Assembly: GCA_965228895.1 (NCBI GenBank)
Contig: OZ245842.1
Coordinates: forward strand, 2,839,964-2,903,963
Length of the DNA stretch: 64,000 nucleotides
From: Alphaproteobacteria bacterium
Lineage (GTDB): Bacteria; Pseudomonadota; Alphaproteobacteria; SP197
Direction: 5' to 3'
Position numbers and translations under genes: made by a program
In this document: piece after piece, positions 11,855-64,000 of the stretch
Layout: the number at the start of each line of letters is the position of its first letter
How positions within the stretch are numbered: the stretch's first letter is position 1
The notes under the pieces: generated by a model
The model's database searches: none
Seen by the model: the letters and a program-made list of their open reading frames with translations, nothing else
What the model was told of the DNA's origin: nothing

Positions 11855-13012
11855 ATGGGTCACGTCAACGACATGCTCGAAAAGCGCCGCGAGTTTCTCG
11901 CGGGCAAGATAAACCGGCGCCAATTCAACCAGGCGCTGGCGGCGGTCGGACTGACGACCACCGCATTCCCGATGCACGCGGCGATGGCGCAAAGCGGCGA
12001 ACACCCGACGGTCTTCACATGGTCGGGATACGAGGAAGAAGCCTTCATCGCGAGCTATGTGAACCTGCACGGCACCGCGCCCGACTTCTCGTTCTTCGCC
12101 GACGAGGAAGAAGCCTATGCCAAGTTGCGGTCGGGCTTCCCGGCGGATGTCTTGATGCCGTGCACCTATAAGGTTCCGCCGTGGTACCGGGCCGGCCTCT
12201 TGGCGCCGATCGATACGTCGAGACTCACCCACTGGAACGATATCGTACCGAGCCTGAAGGAAATTCCGGGTACGGTGTTCGACGGTGAGCACTATTTCGT
12301 GCCGCAGGATTTCGGTTTTACCGCCATCACGTTCCGTCACGACCTGGCACCTGAGTATCTGGAGCCTGAGAACGCAAGCTGGGGTTTCCTTTGGGACACC
12401 AACTATGCCGGTCGCTTGGCAATGATCGACAGTCTGATCGACGGTGTCGCCGTCGCGTCAATCTATGGCGGCTACAACCCGTTCGACATGAACGAGCTTG
12501 AGATCGAAGGGACGAAGAAACTCCTGCAGGAACAGCTGCCTCTGCTGCGCTACTACGCAGGCGGTATGTCAGACGTCGAGCAGTCCTTGGCCGCGGGTGA
12601 ACTGGTCGCCTCGGCAACGTGGAACGGCTCGCGCATCCGTCTGACCGAACAGGGCGTTCCCGTCACCTTCATGAAACCGGACCAACCGGCCCTGAACGGT
12701 GAGCCCCAGGGTCCGATGACCTGGGTCTGCGGCATCTGCCTGTCGGCGACCATGGATCCGTCACTCGAACAACAGGCTTATGACGTGATGGACGCCTATA
12801 TGTCGCCGGAAGCCGGTGTCTATGAAGTCACCGAGTGGGCCGCCGGCCACGCCAACAACAGGGTCTATGAAATGATCGATGAGCAGCAGCTGCTCGATTA
12901 TGGCTTGGCGAAAAACCCCGACGAGGTCCTGGCGAAGGGCATCTTCCAGGAAGAAATGAAACAGGAAGCCCGGCTGCAGGAAATGTTCGAAGAAGTCAAA
13001 GCCGGCATGTAA
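11855..13012 (+). CDS. PotD/PotF-like periplasmic solute-binding protein with a Tat-type signal (paralog 1)
   Basis: AAGGAG lies upstream of the ATG. The N-terminus has KRREFLAGKINRRQF...AAMAQ (twin-arginine signal). The body is homologous to the ORFs at 13198 and 37005 (FTWSGYEEE..., LLAPIDTSRL...). Confidence 0.75.
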   Translation: MGHVNDMLEKRREFLAGKINRRQFNQALAAVGLTTTAFPMHAAMAQSGEHPTVFTWSGYEEEAFIASYVNLHGTAPDFSFFADEEEAYAKLRSGFPADVLMPCTYKVPPWYRAGLLAPIDTSRLTHWNDIVPSLKEIPGTVFDGEHYFVPQDFGFTAITFRHDLAPEYLEPENASWGFLWDTNYAGRLAMIDSLIDGVAVASIYGGYNPFDMNELEIEGTKKLLQEQLPLLRYYAGGMSDVEQSLAAGELVASATWNGSRIRLTEQGVPVTFMKPDQPALNGEPQGPMTWVCGICLSATMDPSLEQQAYDVMDAYMSPEAGVYEVTEWAAGHANNRVYEMIDEQQLLDYGLAKNPDEVLAKGIFQEEMKQEARLQEMFEEVKAGM

Positions 13013-13036
13013 CCGACTTTCTTATCGACGATTTGC

Positions 13037-13071
13037 GGCGCCGGGGCCTTGTGCCCCGGCGCCATTTTTTT
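13037..13071 (+). terminator. Rho-independent terminator after SBP paralog 1
   Basis: The stem ggcgccggggc / gccccggcgcc has a 5-nt loop and is followed by a T7 run. Confidence 0.8.
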
Positions 13072-13197
13072 GCCACCGTGAGAAGTCTTCTTTATGGCTA
13101 CTTGTTGACCTTGATCCTGCCAGGCGCAATGATCCGGGCTGAGGGGATCGGTTTGCACTAACACATAAGCGTACAAAACGCTTAGGGAGACGATTGA

Positions 13198-14367
13198 ATG
13201 AAAAATCTTGATGTTAACCGCATCTGTGACGGTATCCGCGAAGGCAAGATGTCGCGTCGCGAAATCCACACAGTGCTTGGTGCCGTTGGTTTCGGCCTGG
13301 CTGTCGTGCCGCTGACCAAAGGTGCACAAGCCCAAGAGATTGCCGCCGCAAGTTGTGGTGATGGTCATCCGATGACATTTACTTGGTCGGGCTACGACGA
13401 AGTTAACTTCCACAAACAGTACATCGCCGAGTACGGCTGCGCTTCGAACTTCACCTTCTGGGGTGACGAAGAAGAGGCCTTCGCCAAGATGCGGGCGGGC
13501 TTTGAGCCCGACGTCATGGCGCCGTGCACCTACGAGCTGAACCGCTGGTTCAATGCCGGCCTTTTGGCACCGATCGACACGTCGATGCTGTCGAACTGGG
13601 ATCAGATCATCCCGGCACTGAAGGAAGTGGATGGTTCGATTCAGGGCGGCAACCGCGTGTTCGTGCCAATGGATTGGGGCCAAACCTCCGTCACGTTCCG
13701 CACCGATCTGGCGCCGGAGTATGTCGACGTCGAGAACCACACCTGGGGCATCCTGTGGGATCCCAAGTATGCCGGTCGCCTGTCGATGATCGACAGCTTG
13801 ATCGACGGTGTCGCCGTTGCATCGATCTATGCCGGCCTTGAGGACCCTTACGACCTTTCCGACCCCGCCGATATGGAAACGACGGCCAATTTGCTGCGCG
13901 AACAGCTTCCGTTGCTGCGTTACTATTCCAACACCATGTCGGACGTCGAGCAGTCGCTGGCCTCCGGTGAGCTGGTTGCCGCGGCAACGTGGAACAGCTC
14001 GATCGTCGCGCTGCGCGGCCAGGGCCTACCGGTCATGTTCATGCAGCCAAAGGAAGGCGCGATGACATGGGTGTGCGGTCTGGTCCGTCATCCCTCCAAC
14101 GACGGCAGGGGCGAAGAGCAGATCGAGAAGGCGCATCAGATCCTCGACTCCTATCTCAGTGCCGAAGCCGGTGCGTGGGAGATCATCAACTACGGTTACG
14201 GTCACGCCAACCTCGGCGCCTACGAAATGGTGAGCGAAGAAGAGCTCGCCGAGCGTGGTCTGTCGAAGAACCCGGACGACCTGCTGGAAACCGGTATCTT
14301 CCAGGTGGAGATGACACCGCAGCAAGATATCCAAACCATGTTCGAGGAAGTCAAAGCCGGCATGTAA
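13198..14367 (+). CDS. PotD/PotF-like periplasmic solute-binding protein with a Tat-type signal (paralog 2)
   Basis: AGGGAGA lies upstream of the ATG. The signal is SRREIHTVLGAVGFGLAVVPLTKGAQA. The body is clearly paralogous to the ORF at 11855. Confidence 0.75.
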   Translation: MKNLDVNRICDGIREGKMSRREIHTVLGAVGFGLAVVPLTKGAQAQEIAAASCGDGHPMTFTWSGYDEVNFHKQYIAEYGCASNFTFWGDEEEAFAKMRAGFEPDVMAPCTYELNRWFNAGLLAPIDTSMLSNWDQIIPALKEVDGSIQGGNRVFVPMDWGQTSVTFRTDLAPEYVDVENHTWGILWDPKYAGRLSMIDSLIDGVAVASIYAGLEDPYDLSDPADMETTANLLREQLPLLRYYSNTMSDVEQSLASGELVAAATWNSSIVALRGQGLPVMFMQPKEGAMTWVCGLVRHPSNDGRGEEQIEKAHQILDSYLSAEAGAWEIINYGYGHANLGAYEMVSEEELAERGLSKNPDDLLETGIFQVEMTPQQDIQTMFEEVKAGM

Positions 14368-25014: not shown

Positions 25015-25288
25015 GGCCAGCACTCCCATCGCGAGTCGTCAAGGGAATCGCCCTATAACGACTCGCGTGACTTCCTACTAGGCAAACCAATTTACAAGTA
25101 GGAAACAGGCAGATTCGGGCGCGTTTTGGATTGAAACAGACCAATTTCGTGGTGATCTGGGCCGAAAACCGCACTTCTCGGATCGCGCCAGACACCAACT
25201 AGACCAAACATGCGAATCGGATTCGTTTGCCGACCAATTTAGACCGAGCCCTAAGGTGGCCATTGGCTGGCAGGCCGGTTGGCGGGTT

Positions 25289-25428
25289 CTAGAGCAGATC
25301 CCGTTTTGATGGAATCGCTTCGCGATGCCGTCAAGACGGGTGAATCCGCTCTATTCATCGATAGAGAGCGGATTCACGCCGTTAGGGGGAACCGTCAAAC
25401 GGTTCCCCCTAACGACGATCCGCTCTAG
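25289..25428. repeat. 140-bp TA-flanked mosaic palindromic element (MITE/RIME-like), copy 1
   Basis: The terminal inverted repeats are ctagagcagatc / gatccgctctag. Three internal hairpins lie between them. A near-identical copy is at 38598-38737 in the same orientation. Confidence 0.8.
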
Positions 25429-25646
25429 CCCTTGGAATCGCTGGAGAACATGCGTTCGATCCGAACGGCAACGGCATCCAAGACGGAGAGCACCAGGAAG
25501 AAGACAAGAATGATGGGCAGGTATTTGAAATCGCTGACAAAGGTGCCCTTGATCTCGTCCTCCATCAACGGCCAGGCCTCGTACCCGCCATAGGCGAGAC
25601 CCGCGGTAACAATCGCGGCGAGGACGACGCGCAGCATCCAGGTCAT
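25425..25646 (-). CDS. Small membrane protein (73 aa), last gene of the Rieske/FRD operon
   Basis: From the ATG at 25646 the product is MTWMLRVVLAAIVTAGLAYGG...YLPIILVFFLVLSVLDAV, which gives two predicted TM helices. A 2-nt gap separates it from the upstream gene stop. Its stop codon lies inside the terminal repeat of the mosaic element. Confidence 0.5.
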   Translation of the reverse strand: MTWMLRVVLAAIVTAGLAYGGYEAWPLMEDEIKGTFVSDFKYLPIILVFFLVLSVLDAVAVRIERMFSSDSKG

Positions 25647-31116: not shown

Positions 31117-31193
31117 CGGAGTGTAGCTCAGCCTGGTAGAGCACCGTCTTCGGGAGGCGGGGGCCGGAGGTTCGAATCCTCCCACTCCGACCA
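31117..31193 (+). tRNA. tRNA-Pro (anticodon CGG)
   Basis: I parsed the cloverleaf by hand. The acceptor stem is CGGAGTG/CACTCCG. The D arm is GCTC-AGCCTGGTA-GAGC. The anticodon stem is CCGTC/GGCGG with loop TTCGGGA. The T arm is GGAGG-TTCGAAT-CCTCC. The 3' ACCA is encoded. Confidence 0.9.
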
Positions 31194-38597: not shown

Positions 38598-38737
38598 TTA
38601 GAGCAGATCCTGTTTTGATGAAATCGCTTCGCGATGCCAGCAAAGCAGGTGAATCTGCTCTACTCATAGATAGAGAGCGGATTCACATGGTTAGGTGGAA
38701 CCGCCAAACGGTTCCACCTAACCATGATCCGCTCTAG
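38598..38737. repeat. 140-bp TA-flanked mosaic palindromic element, copy 2
   Basis: It is collinear with copy 1 (25289-25428) in the same orientation. The differences within stems are compensatory or create T:G pairs. Confidence 0.8.
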
Positions 38738-48729: not shown

Positions 48730-51282
48730 TCAGTTTCGATACTCCTCGGGGATGAAGAGCAGCGAATCCACCTCGGCGCCAATATGACAGTCGATGCAGA
48801 ACGCCACCTTTTCTGTACCCTCCCCGTTTGTGGTGCCGACAGTCTTGCCGTTGGGCATGATCAGGGTGTAGCGCCAGTCATCGGAGTCGGCGTTAAATCC
48901 CGAAGCCATCTTCTCCATGACAAACAACGGTCCGGGCACCACCGTGCCCTTTGCCGTCACCGCGAAGCTGTCCTTGGCCAGCACGGCACCAGCAGGCATG
49001 GTGCCGCCGTTTTCGTACTCGCCATATGACTGCGCCGCTGCGGCGTCAGCGTAATTGTTCACGAAGCGTCCGCCGTGGGTGTACGACTTGTAGGGCACGG
49101 AGTTGTACTTTTCCCATCCGCTGTAGGCGGACGAGATGTCAAGACCGGTGCTGGACATCAAATTGGCCTTGGCATAGCCGACTTCCATCTGCGCCTTGAT
49201 GCAGTCGTAAGCCGCCACAGCCTCGTCATTGGTCAGTTCGATGTCGACGCCGGCACCGCAGCCGCCGCACGCACCACAGCCGCCACACGCACCGCAACCG
49301 CCGCACGCACCACAGGCTCCACAAGCACCACAAGCACCACAGCCGCCACACGCACCGCAGCCACCGCAAGCGCCACAGGCTCCGCAAGCGCCGCAGGCCG
49401 AGCAGGCATCGCAGGCACTGCAGCCCGCCGCCATGCCGGCCGCAGGAACCGCCTCCGGATTCTCCTGCAAGCTCGCGCCGCAACCGCCGCACGCGCCACA
49501 GGCACCGCACGCGCCGCAGCCGCCACAGGCTCCGCAATCGGCCCAAGCGATGCTCGGCACCACGCAACCGGTGTCGGCTTCTGCCGCACAACCGCCGCAT
49601 GCACCACAACCACCGCACGCGCCACACGCTCCGCAAGCACCACACGCGCCGCAGCCACCACAGGCTCCGCATGCACCGCATGCACCGCATGCACCGCATG
49701 CACCGCATGCGTCACAAGCAGAACATGCGCCGCAAGCAGAACATGCGCCGCAGCCTGCCGCCATGCCGCTTGGCAACGCTTCCGGGTTCTCATGGCTGGC
49801 GCCATCTTCGTCGTCGGACCCGTCGGATTTCTCACCGCGCGGTTCCCACCAGTCCTCGCCGTCGCGTTTGGCACGCACTGCAAACTTCATGGCGCCATTC
49901 GAGTCTTCCAGGCTGGCGCCGCAACATCCACCACACGCACCGCAGGCATCACAGGCCGCGCAACACGCCGAGCACGCATCACACGCGCCGCAAGCCGAGC
50001 ACGCATCGCAGGCACCGCAGCCCGCCGCCATGCCAGTCGGCAGGGCGTCCGGATTGTCGAGGCTGGCGCCGCAGCATCCACCACACGCACCGCAGGCATC
50101 ACAAGCCGCACAACATGCCGAACACGCATCACACGCGCCGCAAGCCGAGCACGCATCGCACGCACCGCAGCCCGCCGCCATGCCGGTCGGCAGGGCGTCC
50201 GGATTGTCGAGGCTGGCGCCGCAGCATCCACCGCACGCACCGCAGGCATCACAGGCCGCACAACATGCCGAACACGCATCGCACGCGCCGCAAGCCGAGC
50301 ACGCATCGCACGCACCGCAGCCCGCCGCCATGCCGGTCGGCAGGGCGTCCGGATTGTCGAGGCTTGCGCCGCAACATCCACCGCACGCTCCGCAGGCATC
50401 ACAAGCCGCGCAACACGCCGAGCACGCATCACACGCGCCGCAAGCCGAGCACGCATCGCAGGCACCGCAGCCCGCCGCCATGCCAGTCGGCAGGGCGTCC
50501 GGATTGTCGAGGCTGGCGCCGCAACATCCACCGCAAGCTCCGCAGGCATCACAGGCCGCGCAACACGCCGAGCACGCATCACACGCGCCGCAAGCCGAGC
50601 ACGCATCGCACGCACCGCAGCCAGCCGCCATGCCGGTCGGCAGGGCGTCCGGATTGTCGAGGCTGGCGCCGCAACATCCACCGCAAGCTCCGCAGGCATC
50701 ACAAGCCGCGCAACATGCCGAACACGCATCACACGCGCCGCAAGCCGAGCACGCATCGCACGCACCGCAGCCCGCCGCCATGCCAGTCGGCAGGGCGTCC
50801 GGATTGTCGAGGCTTGCGCCGCAACATCCACCACACGCACCGCAGGCATCACAAGCCGCGCAACATGCCGAACACGCATCACACGCGCCGCAAGCCGAGC
50901 ACGCATCGCACGCACCGCAGCCCGCCGCCATGCCAGTCGGCAGGGCGTCCGGATTGTCGAGGCTTGCGCCGCAACATCCACCACACGCACCGCAGGCATC
51001 ACAGGCCGCGCAACACGCCGAACACGCATCGCACGCGCCGCAAGCCGAGCACGCATCGCACGCACCGCAGCCCGCCGCCATGCCGGTCAAAGCACGATCG
51101 GCGATGGACAAGGAGGCGGGCATGGGAACGGCGGCCGGATTTTCGACCGCGCGTGGATTGACAAGGCGACAGCTGGCGCGACCACAAGGCGCTGCCGCAA
51201 CGCTGACGGCAAGCGCAACGCCGGCGCCCATAAAGGCCGGCAGCATCGTGCTCGACAGCAGATTACGTTTGAGTTCACTCAT
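48730..51282 (-). CDS. Sec-signal hyper-cysteine (Cys-x-x)n tandem-repeat protein with a C-terminal cytochrome P460-family haem-c domain
   Basis: GGGAGG lies upstream of the ATG at 51282. The N-terminal signal is LPAFMGAGVALAVSVAAA. Eight 50-aa units (MAAGCGACDACSACGACDACSACCAACDACGACGGCCGASLDNPDALPTG) are followed by two degenerate Cys modules. The C-terminal ~190 aa has DDWRYTLI and FCIDCHIGAEVDSLLFIPEEY, resembling P460 (NWAFYIF...CAACHKENAKTDMVFTQFYP, from memory). Confidence 0.75.
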   Translation of the reverse strand: MSELKRNLLSSTMLPAFMGAGVALAVSVAAAPCGRASCRLVNPRAVENPAAVPMPASLSIADRALTGMAAGCGACDACSACGACDACSACCAACDACGACGGCCGASLDNPDALPTGMAAGCGACDACSACGACDACSACCAACDACGACGGCCGASLDNPDALPTGMAAGCGACDACSACGACDACSACCAACDACGACGGCCGASLDNPDALPTGMAAGCGACDACSACGACDACSACCAACDACGACGGCCGASLDNPDALPTGMAAGCGACDACSACGACDACSACCAACDACGACGGCCGASLDNPDALPTGMAAGCGACDACSACGACDACSACCAACDACGACGGCCGASLDNPDALPTGMAAGCGACDACSACGACDACSACCAACDACGACGGCCGASLDNPDALPTGMAAGCGACDACSACGACDACSACCAACDACGACGGCCGASLEDSNGAMKFAVRAKRDGEDWWEPRGEKSDGSDDEDGASHENPEALPSGMAAGCGACSACGACSACDACGACGACGACGACGACGGCGACGACGACGACGGCGACGGCAAEADTGCVVPSIAWADCGACGGCGACGACGACGGCGASLQENPEAVPAAGMAAGCSACDACSACGACGACGACGGCGACGGCGACGACGACGACGGCGACGGCGACGGCGAGVDIELTNDEAVAAYDCIKAQMEVGYAKANLMSSTGLDISSAYSGWEKYNSVPYKSYTHGGRFVNNYADAAAAQSYGEYENGGTMPAGAVLAKDSFAVTAKGTVVPGPLFVMEKMASGFNADSDDWRYTLIMPNGKTVGTTNGEGTEKVAFCIDCHIGAEVDSLLFIPEEYRN
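49911..51081. repeat. Tandem direct repeat, 150-bp unit x ~7.8, inside the Cys-rich gene
   Basis: The anchor gcccgccgccatgcc recurs at about 50020, 50170, 50320, 50470, 50620, 50770, 50920 and 51070. In the one adjacent pair I compared, the units are about 95% identical at the DNA level. Confidence 0.95.
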
Positions 51283-59081: not shown

Positions 59082-60644
59082 TCAGACGTTCATCGCAAAC
59101 AGATCCGCGGGCATAAATCGACGGAACCCGCCATCGCGCACCAACGTGGCGATGGTTTCGATGTCGGGCGCGAAAAATCGGTCTTCGTCATAAAAGGGCA
59201 CGCGTTCGCGTACCAGGTTCATCGCGCCGGCAAGCTTTGCCGAGGTGTGAAGCGGCTTTCTGAAATCGATACCTTGGGCGGCGGCCAACAGCTCGATCGC
59301 GGTAATCGCGGCTGCGCTATCGGCCATGGCGAGCAGCCGGAATGCGCCGTGGGTCGCCATCGAGACGTGGTCTTCCTGGTTGGCTGATGTCGGCAGGCTG
59401 TCGATGCTGGCCGGTGCTGCCTTCTGTTTGTTCTCGGCGGCAAGCGCGGCAGCCGTCACCTGGGCGATCATGAAACCGGAGTTGACGCCGCTGTCGTCGA
59501 CCAGGAACGGCGGCAGGTTACTCATCCGGGCATCGGTCAGAAGCGCGATGCGGCGCTCACTGAGCGAACCGATCTCGGCCAGCGCGAGCGCCAGGTTGTC
59601 GGCGGCAAGCGCAATCGGCTCGGCGTGAAAGTTTCCGCCAGAGAGCACATCACCGTCGGCGGCAAACACAAGTGGATTGTCGGTAACACCGTTCGCTTCG
59701 CGCGTGATGATATCACCGGCAAAGCGCAGATGGTCGAGGCACGCGCCCATCACCTGGGGCTGGCAGCGCAGCGAATACGGATCCTGCACACGATCGCAAT
59801 CGACATGGGACTTGCGGATCTCGCTGCCGTCGAGCAGATCGCGGTAGAGTGCCGCGATGTCCTGCTGACCTCGTTGCCGGCGTACGGCGTTGATGCGCTC
59901 GTCAAACGGGGCGTCGCTACCGAGCGAGGCGTCGATACTCATGGTGCCGGCGATGACGGCGGCGGCGAAGACGTCGTGGATGGCCAGCAGGCCACCCGCC
60001 GCAAGCGCGGTCGACACCTGGGTGCCGTTCAGCAGCGCCAGACCTTCTTTGGCATCGAGTTGAAGCGGCGCCATGCCGAGCGCTTCAAGGCCCTCCTCCG
60101 CCGGCATCGATTTGCCGGCGACCTTGATCGACCCGACGCCGATCAACGCGGCCGAGAGATGGGCCAGCGGCGCCAGATCACCGGACGCGCCGACCGACCC
60201 TTGCTGCGGCATCCGCGGCAGGGCGTCCGCATTGTAAAATGCCAGAAGCGCTTCGATGACCTCGCGCCGACACCCGGAGAAACCCTGGCTGAGCGCGTTG
60301 ATTTTGAGAGCCAGCGTCCGGCGCACGACGGCATCGGGCAGCTCGGCACCGACACCCGCCGCGTGGCTCAAGACGATACGGCGCTGCAGGTCGCGCAGAC
60401 GGTCATGCGGGATCGAGGTGTTGGCCAGGCTGCCGAAACCCGTGTTGATGCCATAAACCCGCTCGGTCCCGTTGGCGACCGCCTGGACCAGATCGGATGC
60501 CCGTTCGATCGCAGGCCACGCGTCGTCGTCTATCGTCAGGCGGTTTCCCGCGTCACCAAGCACGGCAATATTGCTGAGCGTGAGCTGGCCGGGCACCAGC
60601 CGAAAGTCATTGGTCATCGTTTCGATCTGCACCACCAGGGGCAT
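59082..60644 (-). CDS. hutH: Histidine ammonia-lyase
   Basis: GSVGASGDLAPLAHL is the MIO-forming ASG triad. The product is full length at about 510-520 aa. The start is either 60644 or the ATG at 60617. Confidence 0.95.
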   Translation of the reverse strand: MPLVVQIETMTNDFRLVPGQLTLSNIAVLGDAGNRLTIDDDAWPAIERASDLVQAVANGTERVYGINTGFGSLANTSIPHDRLRDLQRRIVLSHAAGVGAELPDAVVRRTLALKINALSQGFSGCRREVIEALLAFYNADALPRMPQQGSVGASGDLAPLAHLSAALIGVGSIKVAGKSMPAEEGLEALGMAPLQLDAKEGLALLNGTQVSTALAAGGLLAIHDVFAAAVIAGTMSIDASLGSDAPFDERINAVRRQRGQQDIAALYRDLLDGSEIRKSHVDCDRVQDPYSLRCQPQVMGACLDHLRFAGDIITREANGVTDNPLVFAADGDVLSGGNFHAEPIALAADNLALALAEIGSLSERRIALLTDARMSNLPPFLVDDSGVNSGFMIAQVTAAALAAENKQKAAPASIDSLPTSANQEDHVSMATHGAFRLLAMADSAAAITAIELLAAAQGIDFRKPLHTSAKLAGAMNLVRERVPFYDEDRFFAPDIETIATLVRDGGFRRFMPADLFAMNV

Positions 60645-60770
60645 CGCACGATCTGCGACGCCGGAACTCCTCGATTAAACCCGTGATTGCGCCAGCGCAA
60701 GCTTGTTTACATGGCTCGATTGCGGCCTTAGCGTCATCGTCTAAAGGGTTCTGCTCAAAGGATAACATCC

Positions 60771-62297
60771 ATGACAAGGGAGCGGGCGCGCCGGCGCGAG
60801 AGGCGCAGCAAGGGGCAACGCTTTCATCAACTGCCGTGGCGGCGGGTGACCAACCCGTTCCCGCCGCTTGAGGCCGTTTCCGCCGACGAACTGCAGATGA
60901 TCCAGGATCGTTCGCTGGAGGTCCTGGAAGATATCGGCATCGAGTTCCTGGACGACCGCGCGCTCGACATTCTTCAAAAGGCCGGCGCCGATGTCGATCG
61001 CGGCAACCGGCGCGTTCGCTTTGACCGCAATCTCGTCGCCGAGGCCGTCGCCAAGGCGCCGGCCCGTTTCACACTTCATGCCCGTAACCCCGAACGCAAT
61101 CTGGAGATTGGCGGCAACGCGATCGCATTTTCGCCAGTCGCCAGTCCGCCGTTTGCTTCCGACCTGGACAACGGCCGGCGCGAGGGCAACTTCGCCGATT
61201 ACCAGAATTTCTTGAGGCTCGCGCAAAGCCTCAACATCCTGCATCTGGTGTGCGGTTATCCGGTCGAACCGACGGACCTACCGGCACCGACCCGACATCT
61301 CGATTGTTACGCGGCCTTCGCACGGCTGACCGATCGCGCTTGGCACGCCTATTCGCTGGGCCGCGACCGTGTCGAAGACGCGCTCGACATTATCTGTATG
61401 GTGCGCGGCATCGATCGCGAGCAATTGATGCACGAGCCAAGCGTCGTTACGGTCGTCAATGCCAACTCGCCGCTTCGCTATGACGGCCCGATGCTGGATG
61501 GGCTTCTGCGTATGGCCGATCATCACCAGCCGGTCATCGTGACGCCGTTCACGTTGTGCGGTGCCATGGCGCCGGCGACGGTGGTCGGCGCGTTGACGCA
61601 GCAGAACGCGGAAGCGCTGGCCGGCATGACGTTGATCCAACTCGCCAATCCCGGCGCGCCGGTGATGTATGGCGGCTTTACCAGCAATGTCGACATGAAG
61701 TCCGGCGCGCCGGCCTTCGGCACGCCGGAATACACCCGCGCCGCCTTGATCGGCGGTCAGCTTGCCCGGTTGAACGGCGTGCCCTATCGCTCCAGCAACA
61801 CCAACGCGTCGAACGCGCCCGATGCCCAAGCGGCGTACGAATCCCAGATGTCGATCTGGGGCGCCGTAATGGGCCACGTGAACCTGATGATGCACGGCGC
61901 CGGTTGGCTGGAGGGCGGCCTGGTGGCGAGTTTTGAAAAGATGATCATCGACGTCGAGATGCTGCAGATGATTGCCGAAGTCCTGGAGCCGATCACGGTC
62001 ACGGACGCGGAGATCGGCATCGAAGCCATGGCCGATGTCGGCCCTGGCGGTCACTTCTTCGGGACCCAGCACACACTGGATCGCTACGAGCACGCCTTCT
62101 ACGAACCCGTCGTCTCGGACTGGCGCAACTTCGAAAGCTGGGTCGAGGCCGGCAGTCCCGATGCCGCCCAGCGCGCCAACGTCATCTGGAAACAATTGCT
62201 GGATGACTACACGCCACCACCAATGGACCCGGCGATCGAAGAAGAACTTGAGGCGTTCGTGAGCCGGCGCAAGGCTGAGACCAAAGACGCCGCCTGA
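60771..62297 (+). CDS. MttB-superfamily (non-pyrrolysine) methyltransferase, paralog 1
   Basis: The product is 508 aa. The N-terminus carries ...HQLPWRRVTNPFPPLEAVSADELQMIQDRSLEVLEDIGIEF. The C-terminal motifs GPGGHFFGTQHTL and SDWRNFESW are typical of the trimethylamine methyltransferase family. There is no in-frame TAG. Confidence 0.85.
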   Translation: MTRERARRRERRSKGQRFHQLPWRRVTNPFPPLEAVSADELQMIQDRSLEVLEDIGIEFLDDRALDILQKAGADVDRGNRRVRFDRNLVAEAVAKAPARFTLHARNPERNLEIGGNAIAFSPVASPPFASDLDNGRREGNFADYQNFLRLAQSLNILHLVCGYPVEPTDLPAPTRHLDCYAAFARLTDRAWHAYSLGRDRVEDALDIICMVRGIDREQLMHEPSVVTVVNANSPLRYDGPMLDGLLRMADHHQPVIVTPFTLCGAMAPATVVGALTQQNAEALAGMTLIQLANPGAPVMYGGFTSNVDMKSGAPAFGTPEYTRAALIGGQLARLNGVPYRSSNTNASNAPDAQAAYESQMSIWGAVMGHVNLMMHGAGWLEGGLVASFEKMIIDVEMLQMIAEVLEPITVTDAEIGIEAMADVGPGGHFFGTQHTLDRYEHAFYEPVVSDWRNFESWVEAGSPDAAQRANVIWKQLLDDYTPPPMDPAIEEELEAFVSRRKAETKDAA

Positions 62298-62423
62298 TCG
62301 TCACCGCAGTCTCGGCTTTGGCGTTTTCGTGACCAAAGGTGACGCCCTGGTGCTTTCCAGCGGCATGAGGCGCTCCCTAGCCTTTCGCCGACCCTCATAG
62401 AGAACAGTTCAGGCGGATTCCTC

Positions 62424-63953
62424 ATGGCCCGACGCACATCTAGACGCCAAGCCGGCGGCCGGGCCAAAGGCGCCCTTCATCAGTTGCCCTGGCGGCAGGT
62501 CAGAAACCGGTTCCCGCCGGTCGATATCCTGAGCGCCGATCAGATCGAGCACATCCACAACAGCTCGCTTCAGGTGCTCGAAGAATTGGGCATGGAAGTC
62601 ATGGGCGAGAGTGCGCGGCGTCTTCTGAAAGACGCCGGCGCCGATGTCGACGACGCGACCATGCGCGTGCGCTTCGACCGCACCATGGTGATGGAACAGA
62701 TTGAGAAGGCGCCGGCGGAGTTCACCATCCACAGCCGCAACCCCGACCGCGACGTTGTCTTTGGCGGCAACCACGTGGTCGTCACGCCGGTCAGCAGCAC
62801 ACCGAACTGTTCGGATCTCGACCGCGGCCGCCGCCCCGGCAGCTACGACGACTTCTGCGATCTCCTGCGTCTCTCCCAAAGCCTCAATGTCGTCCACTAC
62901 TACGGCGGCTATCCGGTCGAACCGCAGGACCTGCCGGTGCCGACCCGTCACCTGGATTGTTACATCGCGTTCATCACCTTGACCGACCGCGCGTGGCGCA
63001 CCTATTCGCTGGGCGGCGACCGGTGCCGTGACGGCATCGCGATGAACAAGATCGCGCGCCAGATCGGCGACGATGAGATGCGCGCCAAACCCGGCCTGAT
63101 GACCATGATCAACACCAACTCGCCGCTGCGCCTGGACGGGCCGATGAGCGAGGGTTTGATGGAGATGGCGCGCGCCGGTCAGGGCGTTGCCATCACGCCC
63201 TTCACCCTGTGCGGGGCGATGGCGCCGGCGACGCTTGCCGGCGCCCTGGTGCAGCAGAATGCCGAGGCGTTGGCAGCGCTCGCCCTGGTGCAGTTGGCCA
63301 ACCCCGGCAATCCCGTGATGTATGGCGGCTTTACCAGCAATGTCGACATGAAGTCGGGCGCGCCGGCCTTCGGCACGCCGGAATACGTCAAAGCGACGCT
63401 GGCCGGCGGTCAGTTGGCGCGCCATTACGGCATTCCCTTCCGCACCAGCAACGTCAACGCCTCGAACGCGCCGGACGCGCAAGGCGCGTACGAGTCCGGC
63501 ATGTCGTTATGGGCCGCGTTCCTGGCGCACGGCAACATGATCCACCATGGCGCAGGCTGGCTGGAAGGCGGCCTGGTCTCCAGCTTCGAAAAGATGATCA
63601 TCGATGCGGAGATGCTGCAGATGATGTTCGAGACGCTGGAGCCGCTCGAGGTCACCGATGACGCCATCGGCCTCGACGCCATGCGCGAGGTCGGGCCGGG
63701 CGGCCACTTCTTCGGTGCTCAGCACACGCTCGAACGTTATGAGACCGCATTCTATGCGCCCATGCTGAGCGACTGGCGCAACTTCGAGACCTGGGCCGAA
63801 GCCGGCAGCCCGGACGCGGCGCAACGCGCCAACCGGATCTGGAAGCAGCTTCTGGAGAGTTACGAGGAACCGGCGCTTGATCCGGCAATTCGCGAAGAAC
63901 TCGACGCCTATGTCGCGCGGCGCAAGGAAGAAGGCGGCGCCGAAGACAGCTAG
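62424..63953 (+). CDS. MttB-superfamily (non-pyrrolysine) methyltransferase, paralog 2
   Basis: The product is 509 aa. It is collinear with and about two-thirds identical (by eye) to the upstream paralog, with the same motifs (GPGGHFFGAQHTL, SDWRNFETW). Confidence 0.85.
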   Translation: MARRTSRRQAGGRAKGALHQLPWRQVRNRFPPVDILSADQIEHIHNSSLQVLEELGMEVMGESARRLLKDAGADVDDATMRVRFDRTMVMEQIEKAPAEFTIHSRNPDRDVVFGGNHVVVTPVSSTPNCSDLDRGRRPGSYDDFCDLLRLSQSLNVVHYYGGYPVEPQDLPVPTRHLDCYIAFITLTDRAWRTYSLGGDRCRDGIAMNKIARQIGDDEMRAKPGLMTMINTNSPLRLDGPMSEGLMEMARAGQGVAITPFTLCGAMAPATLAGALVQQNAEALAALALVQLANPGNPVMYGGFTSNVDMKSGAPAFGTPEYVKATLAGGQLARHYGIPFRTSNVNASNAPDAQGAYESGMSLWAAFLAHGNMIHHGAGWLEGGLVSSFEKMIIDAEMLQMMFETLEPLEVTDDAIGLDAMREVGPGGHFFGAQHTLERYETAFYAPMLSDWRNFETWAEAGSPDAAQRANRIWKQLLESYEEPALDPAIREELDAYVARRKEEGGAEDS

Positions 63954-64000
63954 GGCGCGCCGCCGCCTTTCGTGTCAAGGCCGCTTTCATCCGGTTTAAG

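Follow-up and report, generated by a model that had tools for sequence, protein, structure and literature searches.

A small mobile repeat built from two hairpin units that prefers CTAG sites in uncultured alphaproteobacteria

The DNA analyzed here is a stretch of 64,000 nucleotides (nt) from an alphaproteobacterial assembly (GCA_965228895.1, contig OZ245842.1, positions 2,839,964 to 2,903,963 of the forward strand) and is called the window throughout. At 25289-25428, next to a gene for a predicted membrane protein of 73 amino acids (aa), it carries a short palindromic element, hereafter copy A. Copy A is very probably a non-coding miniature inverted-repeat transposable element (MITE), one of a family of non-autonomous mobile DNA built from two hairpin units. 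A previous description of the locus, made by a model from the letters alone and referred to as the sequence-only reading, had implied a second copy, which was found at 38599-38736 and is called copy B.

Copy A and the gene at its right end

The features on which the following sections rely are listed with their window coordinates.

25290..25291, no strand: left TA of the target duplication of copy A; the C at 25289 completes CTAG
25292..25425, plus strand: core of MITE copy A, 134 bp (left unit, linker and right unit); nhmmer E = 1e-45 against the family model
25292..25351, plus strand: left hairpin unit with the outer repeat GAGCAGATCC, enclosing hairpin 1 (25300-25340)
25352..25365, plus strand: inner junction and linker TA-TTCATCGA-TA-GA between the units, unpaired in the family-typical fold
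25366..25425, plus strand: right hairpin unit, in which the inner GAGCGGATTCAC pairs with the outer GATCCGCTC, enclosing hairpin 3
25426..25427, no strand: right TA of the target duplication of copy A; the G at 25428 completes CTAG
25425..25646, minus strand: 73-aa predicted membrane-protein gene, from the list of open reading frames (ORFs); no Pfam family
38599..38736, plus strand: MITE copy B, with TA at 38599-38600, core at 38601-38734 and TA at 38735-38736
63950..63953, no strand: unoccupied CTAG at a gene's stop codon; the orthologous site in locus L010 is filled

The interval 25289-25428 reads C-TA-(134 bp)-TA-G and both begins and ends in CTAG. Its left end is C-TA-GAGCAGATCC, its right end is GATCCGCTC-TA-G, and the terminal inverted repeat gagcagatc (25292-25300) faces gatccgctc (25417-25425) with a single A.C mismatch. 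The repeats, the TA flanks and the three hairpins named by the sequence-only reading were all recovered where it had placed them, with hairpin 1 at 25300-25340 (containing an inner atcgc/gcgat stem), hairpin 2 at 25341-25376 and hairpin 3 at 25381-25413. It had described these hairpins as nested, which they are not; rather, they lie adjacent to each other inside a closing stem. The 49-aa ORF found over copy A occurs in one subfamily only, and the consensus of the family has stops in all six frames.

On the minus strand, the stop codon TAG of the 73-aa gene (25425-25427) consists of the duplicated TA and the terminal base of the element. It had been suggested that the insertion reshaped the end of this gene. 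This did not hold, as the gene encodes 73 aa in all four genomes compared, with or without the element, and ends in TAG or TAA at the same TA. The stop is preserved by the insertion because CTAG contains TAG on both strands. The same relation was found throughout the family, for which all counts given here (130, 133, 140 or 143 copies) refer to copies in the loci that were listed and fetched. An ORF of at least 80 codons, rich in G and C at the third codon position, ended exactly in the TAG of the left end in 39 of 140 copies and in that of the right end in 35 of 140, compared with 2-4 copies in control frames. Altogether, 66 of the 140 copies (47%) coincide with one or more stop codons, and 8 with two. 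A CTAG-specific element can hence land on stop codons without changing a protein, and its exact ends allow annotators to mask the repeat and to avoid mis-called gene ends and spurious ORFs such as the one over copy A.

On its other side, copy A is separated by a spacer of approximately 260 nt (25030-25290) from a serine-glyoxylate-type aminotransferase gene. Blocks within this spacer, e.g., GGTCTAAATTGGT, GGCCCAGATC and CTTGTAAATTGGTTTGCCTAGTAGGAA, are conserved in the equivalent regions of L033 and L035, between genomes that are only about 88% identical. They may have a regulatory role for the aminotransferase and malate thiokinase-like genes that lie downstream.

Empty sites, target sequence and copy number

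Orthologous sites without copy A were found in three loci, namely L033 from a metagenome-assembled genome (MAG; JANQGO), L034 from a Logan assembly and L035 from the ENA assembly ERZ25073760. All three keep the gene order of the window (73-aa gene, spacer, aminotransferase gene), lack the element and have a single TA in its place. Where the window reads ...GGGC-TA-(134 nt)-TA-GAAC..., the relatives read ...GGAG-TA-GGCG... or ...GGAC-TA-AGAC.... The window itself is 98% identical to contig_1 of the ENA assembly ERZ26167852, a contig of 1.64 Mb.

Copy B, located 28 nt upstream of the start codon of an aminotransferase gene, showed a comparable pattern. Its orthologous loci were reached via this gene, while the GFA gene gave only paralogues in other contexts. 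Copy B is complete in L001, a 98%-identical strain, and absent from L159 and L160, whose flanks can be aligned right up to its two TAs. In the JANQGO MAG (L158) the orthologous copy is truncated at the 5' end, its left unit having been lost by an internal deletion. A third site of this kind lies near the end of the window. Locus L010 of the JANQGO MAG matches window 60466-63957 at 88.4% identity. At a gene's stop codon it contains the right terminus of a family copy (...GATCCGCTC-TAG), whereas the orthologous position of the window, 63950..63953, is a bare CTAG. Copies A and B share 88% of alignment columns, with changes on both sides of stem pairs, and the family profiles detected no further full or half copies in the 64-kb window.

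The deletion in L158 (2385-2473) removed about 65 nt, apparently between short ATC repeats (GCTATC / GAATC), and represents a route by which truncated copies such as those at L010 and L017:206-304 can arise.

The search patterns imposed neither a C before the left TA nor a G after the right TA. C preceded the left TA in 120 of 133 copies and G followed the right TA in 123 of 133, and from these flanks in roughly 90% of the copies it can be concluded that CTAG is the preferred target and that its TA is duplicated. Copies with deviant outer bases (aTA...TAc, tTA...TAg) coexist with a constant G and C on the element side. As the element-side bases stay constant where the outer ones differ, the duplication comprises the 2 bp TA. 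CTAG itself is strongly avoided in this genome; it occurs 34 times in the 64-kb window, where base composition predicts 217 occurrences and a second-order model 70.

An exact 18-mer scan with one genome per species returned 31 loci, 15 of them in a single MAG, and the other 16 were unrelated and about as frequent as chance predicts. The copy-rich MAG is Alphaproteobacteria bacterium PL23b_bin.48 (JANQGO01, GCA_028277285.1). The genes that it shares with the window show about 88% identity, and it holds 14 full-length and 4 truncated copies (the profile search gave three truncated copies, and the fourth was found later). Among metagenome contigs, at least 120 loci were obtained by a scan that required only two termini 100-130 nt apart, while no family copy was found in viral contigs. 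The 0.97 Mb of fetched DNA yielded 143 full-length matches and 13 partial ones, no two of them with the same flanking context. The hosts are uncultured alphaproteobacteria, in which the genes beside the element have their closest named relatives in Rhodospirillales-like MAGs. The element is therefore mobile, duplicates TA and prefers CTAG. The non-autonomous mobile element with TA duplication that had been considered plausible from the letters alone was thus supported by empty orthologous sites at two loci and more than 140 copies in unrelated contexts, and the proposed check of copy number likewise revealed many copies beyond the two of the window, with C-TA...TA-G flanks in about 90%.

Some loci contained composite arrangements. 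At L039:867-1140, two MITE copies stand in direct tandem with the common junction ...GATCCGCTC-TA-GCAGATCC..., the second one without its first two bases. At L041:3320-3350 and L087:2185-2215, a full copy is followed by a 25-nt micro-unit, GACAGATCCGGATTCGATCCGCTC-TAG.

Two hairpin units and the evolution of their stems

The 161-nt region around copy A folds as RNA with -98.2 and -97.9 kcal/mol on the two strands, whereas dinucleotide shuffles reach about -51 kcal/mol (z = -11.1 and -11.7, with 0 of 200 shuffles equally good). DNA parameters gave a z of -11.4. On either strand, copy A forms a closing stem around three side-by-side hairpins. However, the arrangement of three hairpins within one terminal repeat, as initially described, applies to copy A only. 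As DNA, copy B and a representative metagenome copy form two long hairpins joined by an 11-nt linker, and RNAalifold on 16 copies gave the same two hairpins plus linker, with motif 1 pairing with motif 2 and motif 3 with motif 4. These motifs, AGAGC(A/G)GAT, occur four times per element in the order forward, reverse, forward, reverse.

One diagnostic position within the motifs revealed which of them belong together. Read across the four motifs, it is (A, T, G, C) in 120 of 133 copies, so that pair 1-2 (A-T) is Watson-Crick in 123 and pair 3-4 (G-C) in 132 of the 133. The alternative partners do not match. Between the outer motifs 1 and 4 the bases are A.C and form a Watson-Crick pair in just 3 copies, and between motifs 2 and 3 they are T.G; counted in the 130 copies, the outer-to-outer diagnostic pair is unpaired in 125. 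Copy A alone prefers the three-hairpin fold because its motif 2 has the minority C.

The two units also occur on their own. A solo left unit was found at L058:3716-3780 and solo right-type units at L124:4318-4382, L097:807-871 and L102:1735-1795, all of them flanked by TA in a CTAG context. In the complete element, GAGC(A/G)GATC at both ends is almost invariant in 130 copies, and each half-unit has its own perfectly matched pair. In the left unit, GAGCAGATCC is paired with the inner repeat GAATC(T/C)GCTC across the family. Within a unit, the inner end matches the outer one except for three inserted nucleotides (GAGCAGAT-TCA-C... versus GAGCAGAT-C...), and the inserted TCA creates a GANTC site. 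The left and right units are related to each other in inverted orientation, the linker sequence varies across the family alignment, and the element measures 136-142 bp from TA to TA. The element is consequently a dimer: two hairpin mini-MITEs, each some 60-65 bp long and bounded by inverted repeats of its own, are connected through a linker of about 10 nt. A dominant repeat can therefore be a dimer of smaller mobile units.

For covariation, 130 distinct copies were aligned with MAFFT without structure fitting. Standard pairs made up 92.6% of the cells; shuffling lowered this share to 86.0%, and sliding the partners gave no more than 42%. Two-sided changes were observed in 29 of 48 stem pairs (428 cells), and 0 of 500 shuffles reached any of the five measures. 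The compensatory signal resides almost wholly in the two inner hairpins, with 9 of 11 pairs on the left and 17 of 19 on the right. With regard to strand, mismatches of the G.T and A.C types were equally frequent on the top strand (67 vs 64 in hairpin 1 and 64 vs 76 in hairpin 3 of the 130 copies), and the orientation to the neighboring gene was balanced at 39 vs 35 copies. Together, both results argue against a strand-specific function as transcribed RNA. Such selection had been considered after hairpin 1 showed an excess of G.T in the set of 16 copies, but the excess vanished in the 130 copies. The covariation may instead stem from selection on a DNA-level hairpin, from selection on master copies for transposability or from self-correction of the palindrome during replication.

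GANTC, the site of the alphaproteobacterial CcrM methyltransferase, is present at a median of 3 per element and at three fixed positions, whereas flanking DNA contains 0.29 per 138 nt. Neither a sigma-70 promoter consensus nor an intrinsic-terminator consensus was found inside the element.

Candidate transposases and comparison with known repeats

The most coherent account of these data is that of a MITE without a gene of its own, on which a transposase encoded elsewhere would act. This enzyme would cleave at the terminal repeats GAGC(A/G)GATC and join the ends to a TA, preferably within CTAG, and repair after joining would leave TA on both sides. The two mini-MITE units, facing each other across the linker, would travel jointly by their outer two ends. 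Copy A would have inserted at the TA of the 73-aa gene's stop codon, with no change to the encoded protein. Given that these genomes have few CTAG sites, and that each of them reads TAG on either strand, the insertions that are tolerated would accumulate exactly on stop codons. Effects on neighboring genes, e.g., a stable hairpin at the 3' end of an mRNA, would only be a by-product.

The identity of the transposase is inferred, and enzymes of the IS630 type and of the IS5/IS711 type both fit the TA/CTAG signature. We tentatively favor an IS630/Tc1-mariner-type DDE enzyme, which could quite conceivably be the mover. IS630-family elements duplicate TA, and a preference for CTAG has been reported for IS630 (Tenzen & Ohtsubo 1991, cited in PMC2170065). 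However, TA duplication alone is no pointer to IS630, because elements of the IS5/IS427 group fit equally well. The origin from IS630/Tc1-mariner-type transposition proposed by the sequence-only reading is a candidate attribution that agrees with the TA/CTAG signature, but no IS630-type element or matching ends turned up in approximately 1 Mb of family-bearing DNA, and IS711-like elements fit as well. No IS630-type element was found by the terminal-repeat searches of this DNA, in which ORFs were not screened for IS630-type transposase domains. A parent insertion sequence (IS) was sought by orphan terminal motifs, by TA-flanked pairs of inverted repeats with a spacing of 0.7-3 kb, and by inverted repeats that begin at a MITE end. 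Apart from pairs of MITEs, the only results were IS5-family elements, whose ends are unrelated. One candidate parent, at L145:10662, was discarded, as it consisted merely of an argG stop followed by a chance motif.

Several observations weigh against a MITE moved by such a transposase. At site A, the inserted length comes out as 135 or 136 nt, with an ambiguous placement of a 1-nt indel in the diverged spacer. At site B, the empty relatives read TG and AT instead of TA at the exact position, which is expected after divergence, though it is not a clean pre-insertion allele. An autonomous element with matching terminal repeats was not found in the window, in related MAG loci or in about 1 Mb of metagenome loci, and the sole insertion sequences nearby belong to the IS5 family, with terminal repeats unlike those of the MITE. 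Finally, a double-strand cut-and-paste mechanism does not need the strong compensatory evolution of the hairpins.

The same MITE could also be moved by an IS5-family transposase of the IS427/IS711 group, which likewise duplicates TA within YTAR/CTAG; we consider this possible, but somewhat doubtful. It draws on five IS5-family copies, belonging to three IS species and located in TA within CTAG:

L085:1-883, IS5-family (IS711-like) copy
L039:1907-2756, IS5-family (IS711-like) copy
L079:233-about 1000, IS5-family (IS711-like) copy
L130:1156-end of contig, IS5-family (IS711-like) copy
L152:1-106, IS5-family (IS711-like) copy

These copies are the only insertion sequences found in family-bearing loci, where no IS630-type element was seen. 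They have two ORFs within approximately 845-880 bp, match NF033580 transpos_IS5_3, DUF4096 and DDE_Tnp_1_2, and are flanked by cTA...TAg. All five sit exactly in the TA at a MITE end (P about 0.003 if CTAG sites were hit at random). A precedent exists in Brucella, where IS711, an element of 842 bp with two ORFs, duplicates the TA of YTAR and favors the palindromic Bru-RS repeats (PMC2266754). On the other hand, the terminal repeats of the three IS species (GGTCGTGGTGACATTT, GGTCCAATCGACATTCAG and GGGTCTGTGGACATTTATG) are unlike the MITE ends (GAGCAGATCCGGG), and a common CTAG target without any parent-offspring relation also explains the abutment. In L039, the IS5-family element is placed between two tandem MITEs.

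A palindrome of the REP/BIME/REPIN kind, mobilized as single-stranded hairpin DNA by a RAYT transposase (Y1, IS200/IS605-like), appears very improbable. Such an origin would account for hairpin units whose stems are kept by compensatory changes, as has been reported for REPINs, for a doublet and mosaic organization reminiscent of BIMEs, and for the equal frequency of G.T and A.C mismatches, which implies that no selection favors one transcribed strand and is compatible with a DNA-level hairpin. However, the filled and empty sites show TA on both sides of the element in a symmetric, palindromic CTAG target, while to our knowledge Y1 transposases leave no target duplication. The conserved GTAG head is absent as well, and a RAYT gene was not seen in a search that was not exhaustive. 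A functional structured RNA or cis-regulatory element (small RNA, stabilizer or terminator at an mRNA 3' end, CcrM-methylation sites) that became repetitive by recruitment would suit the extremely stable, covarying fold, the three GANTC at fixed positions, the 47% of copies directly after a stop codon and the position of copy B just upstream of a start codon, but it is hardly credible in view of the lacking Rfam match and promoter or terminator consensus, the balanced orientation to flanking genes, the missing excess of G.U over A.C and the presence/absence differences among closely related genomes at orthologous sites with unchanged flanking genes.

Returning to the MITE interpretation, the element has the features of bacterial MITEs: it is a non-coding sequence below approximately 300 bp with terminal inverted repeats, a target duplication and many dispersed copies. 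The one further feature of such MITEs, a cognate autonomous IS, did not turn up in about 1 Mb of loci. While this kind of element is well known, and the family is in this respect an ordinary selfish element, no match to a described family was found for it. A gathering-threshold Rfam scan of the whole window passed only a tRNA elsewhere, and a permissive scan of 25200-25500 reached at best 22 bits against a cut-off of 37, so that the known non-coding RNA family raised as a counter-explanation did not materialize. A blastn search of PLSDB (72,556 plasmids) with the element and the left-unit consensus gave no match at E <= 1e-3 and only chance matches of 19-25 nt at E <= 10. A full-text literature search for the terminal and inner motifs retrieved unrelated primers only.

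By mechanism, the family is closest to RUP and the Correia elements, and by host and architecture to the CIR and Bru-RS repeats. RUP of pneumococcus, a MITE linked to IS630-Spn1, is likewise small, non-coding and present in many copies with TA duplication. It measures 107 bp, has 9-bp terminal inverted repeats and often lies beside or within insertion sequences (PMC2229807). In contrast to the family, RUP has a cognate IS with matching ends, consists of a single unit and comes from another host phylum, and the two share no sequence similarity. The Correia (NEMIS) elements of Neisseria are also comparable in size and share the TA duplication and terminal inverted repeats; they are 100-155 bp long, yield long stem-loop transcripts, occur in size variants that differ in internal modules and have no known transposase (PMC2229807). 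However, their inverted repeats of 24-26 bp and their IHF and promoter motifs contrast with the ends of about 10 bp, the GANTC sites and the two tandem hairpin units found here, and the strict CTAG context has not been described for them.

CIR1-4 of Caulobacter and Bru-RS1/Bru-RS2 of Brucella resemble the family in being alphaproteobacterial, in having two arms and a linker, and in their GANTC. They are described as two inverted-repeat arms joined by a linker, with TA termini and a conserved GANTC, and are exclusively intergenic; they are listed without terminal inverted repeats, with an unknown target duplication and unresolved mobility (PMC2229807). Compared by description only, CIR and Bru-RS are shorter (approximately 103-110 bp vs 134-138 bp), and CIR carries GANTC in the terminal loop, whereas the family has it in the stems and beside the terminal repeats. 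Bru-RS repeats are insertion hot spots for the TA-duplicating IS711 (PMC2266754), which parallels the IS711-like elements exactly at the element ends described above. CcrM sites, compensatory hairpins and IS711-like elements at the ends thereby connect the family to the poorly understood CIR/Bru-RS repeats and provide a testable link. By analogy, the CIR/Bru-RS repeats might themselves be head-to-head dimers of TA-duplicating, CTAG-targeting hairpin mini-MITEs, whose hairpins and three fixed GANTC sites would be kept by selection owing to a coupling of transposition, or of transposase binding at the ends, to replication and CcrM hemimethylation, and which would serve as landing pads for IS711-like elements. 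We regard this as unlikely; if true, the family would be a mechanistic key to the movement of CIR/Bru-RS and to their CcrM sites.

RIME1 and RIME2 of Rhizobium are alphaproteobacterial intergenic mosaic repeats on a scale of about 100 bp and built from palindromes. The label RIME-like, given to the element by the sequence-only reading, remains valid as an analogy only. PLSDB, including the megaplasmids of Sinorhizobium and Rhizobium, showed no blastn similarity to the family. This comparison presumes that RIMEs are present on pSym plasmids. We know of no TA duplication or CTAG target established for RIMEs. The REP/BIME/REPIN elements are, like the family, hairpin-forming, extragenic and arranged as doublets with stems kept by compensation, but REPs have a GTAG head and no target duplication, in contrast to the TA duplication in a palindromic CTAG. 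Integron attC sites were also considered on account of hairpin 3 (GTTAGGT...ACCTAAC) and rejected, as the core order is reversed relative to RYYYAAC ... GTTRRRY on both strands and the copies are dispersed and intergenic rather than lined up in cassette arrays.

A different palindromic insertion of about 110 bp was encountered in L158:3830-3960 (JANQGO010000461), between the aminotransferase gene and a DUF3179 gene. It contains the long inverted repeat GGCCCGCTCCCTCTCC...GGAGGAGGGGGAGCGGGCC, is absent from the relative L159 (3800-3915) and may represent a second MITE-like family. Within the window, the tRNA gene that was the sole Rfam match lies at 31117-31190. Further downstream, runs with a 9-nt period (49203-49786) are followed by eight 150-nt units of 92-96% identity (49757-51106). 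These repeats lie inside overlapping ORFs of 750-850 aa on both strands, and the region 49203-51106 is probably a gene for a highly repetitive protein. In addition, two tandem pairs of paralogous segments, 67-81% identical, were found at 12069-14367 and 61252-63494, with spacings of approximately 1364 and 1653 nt.

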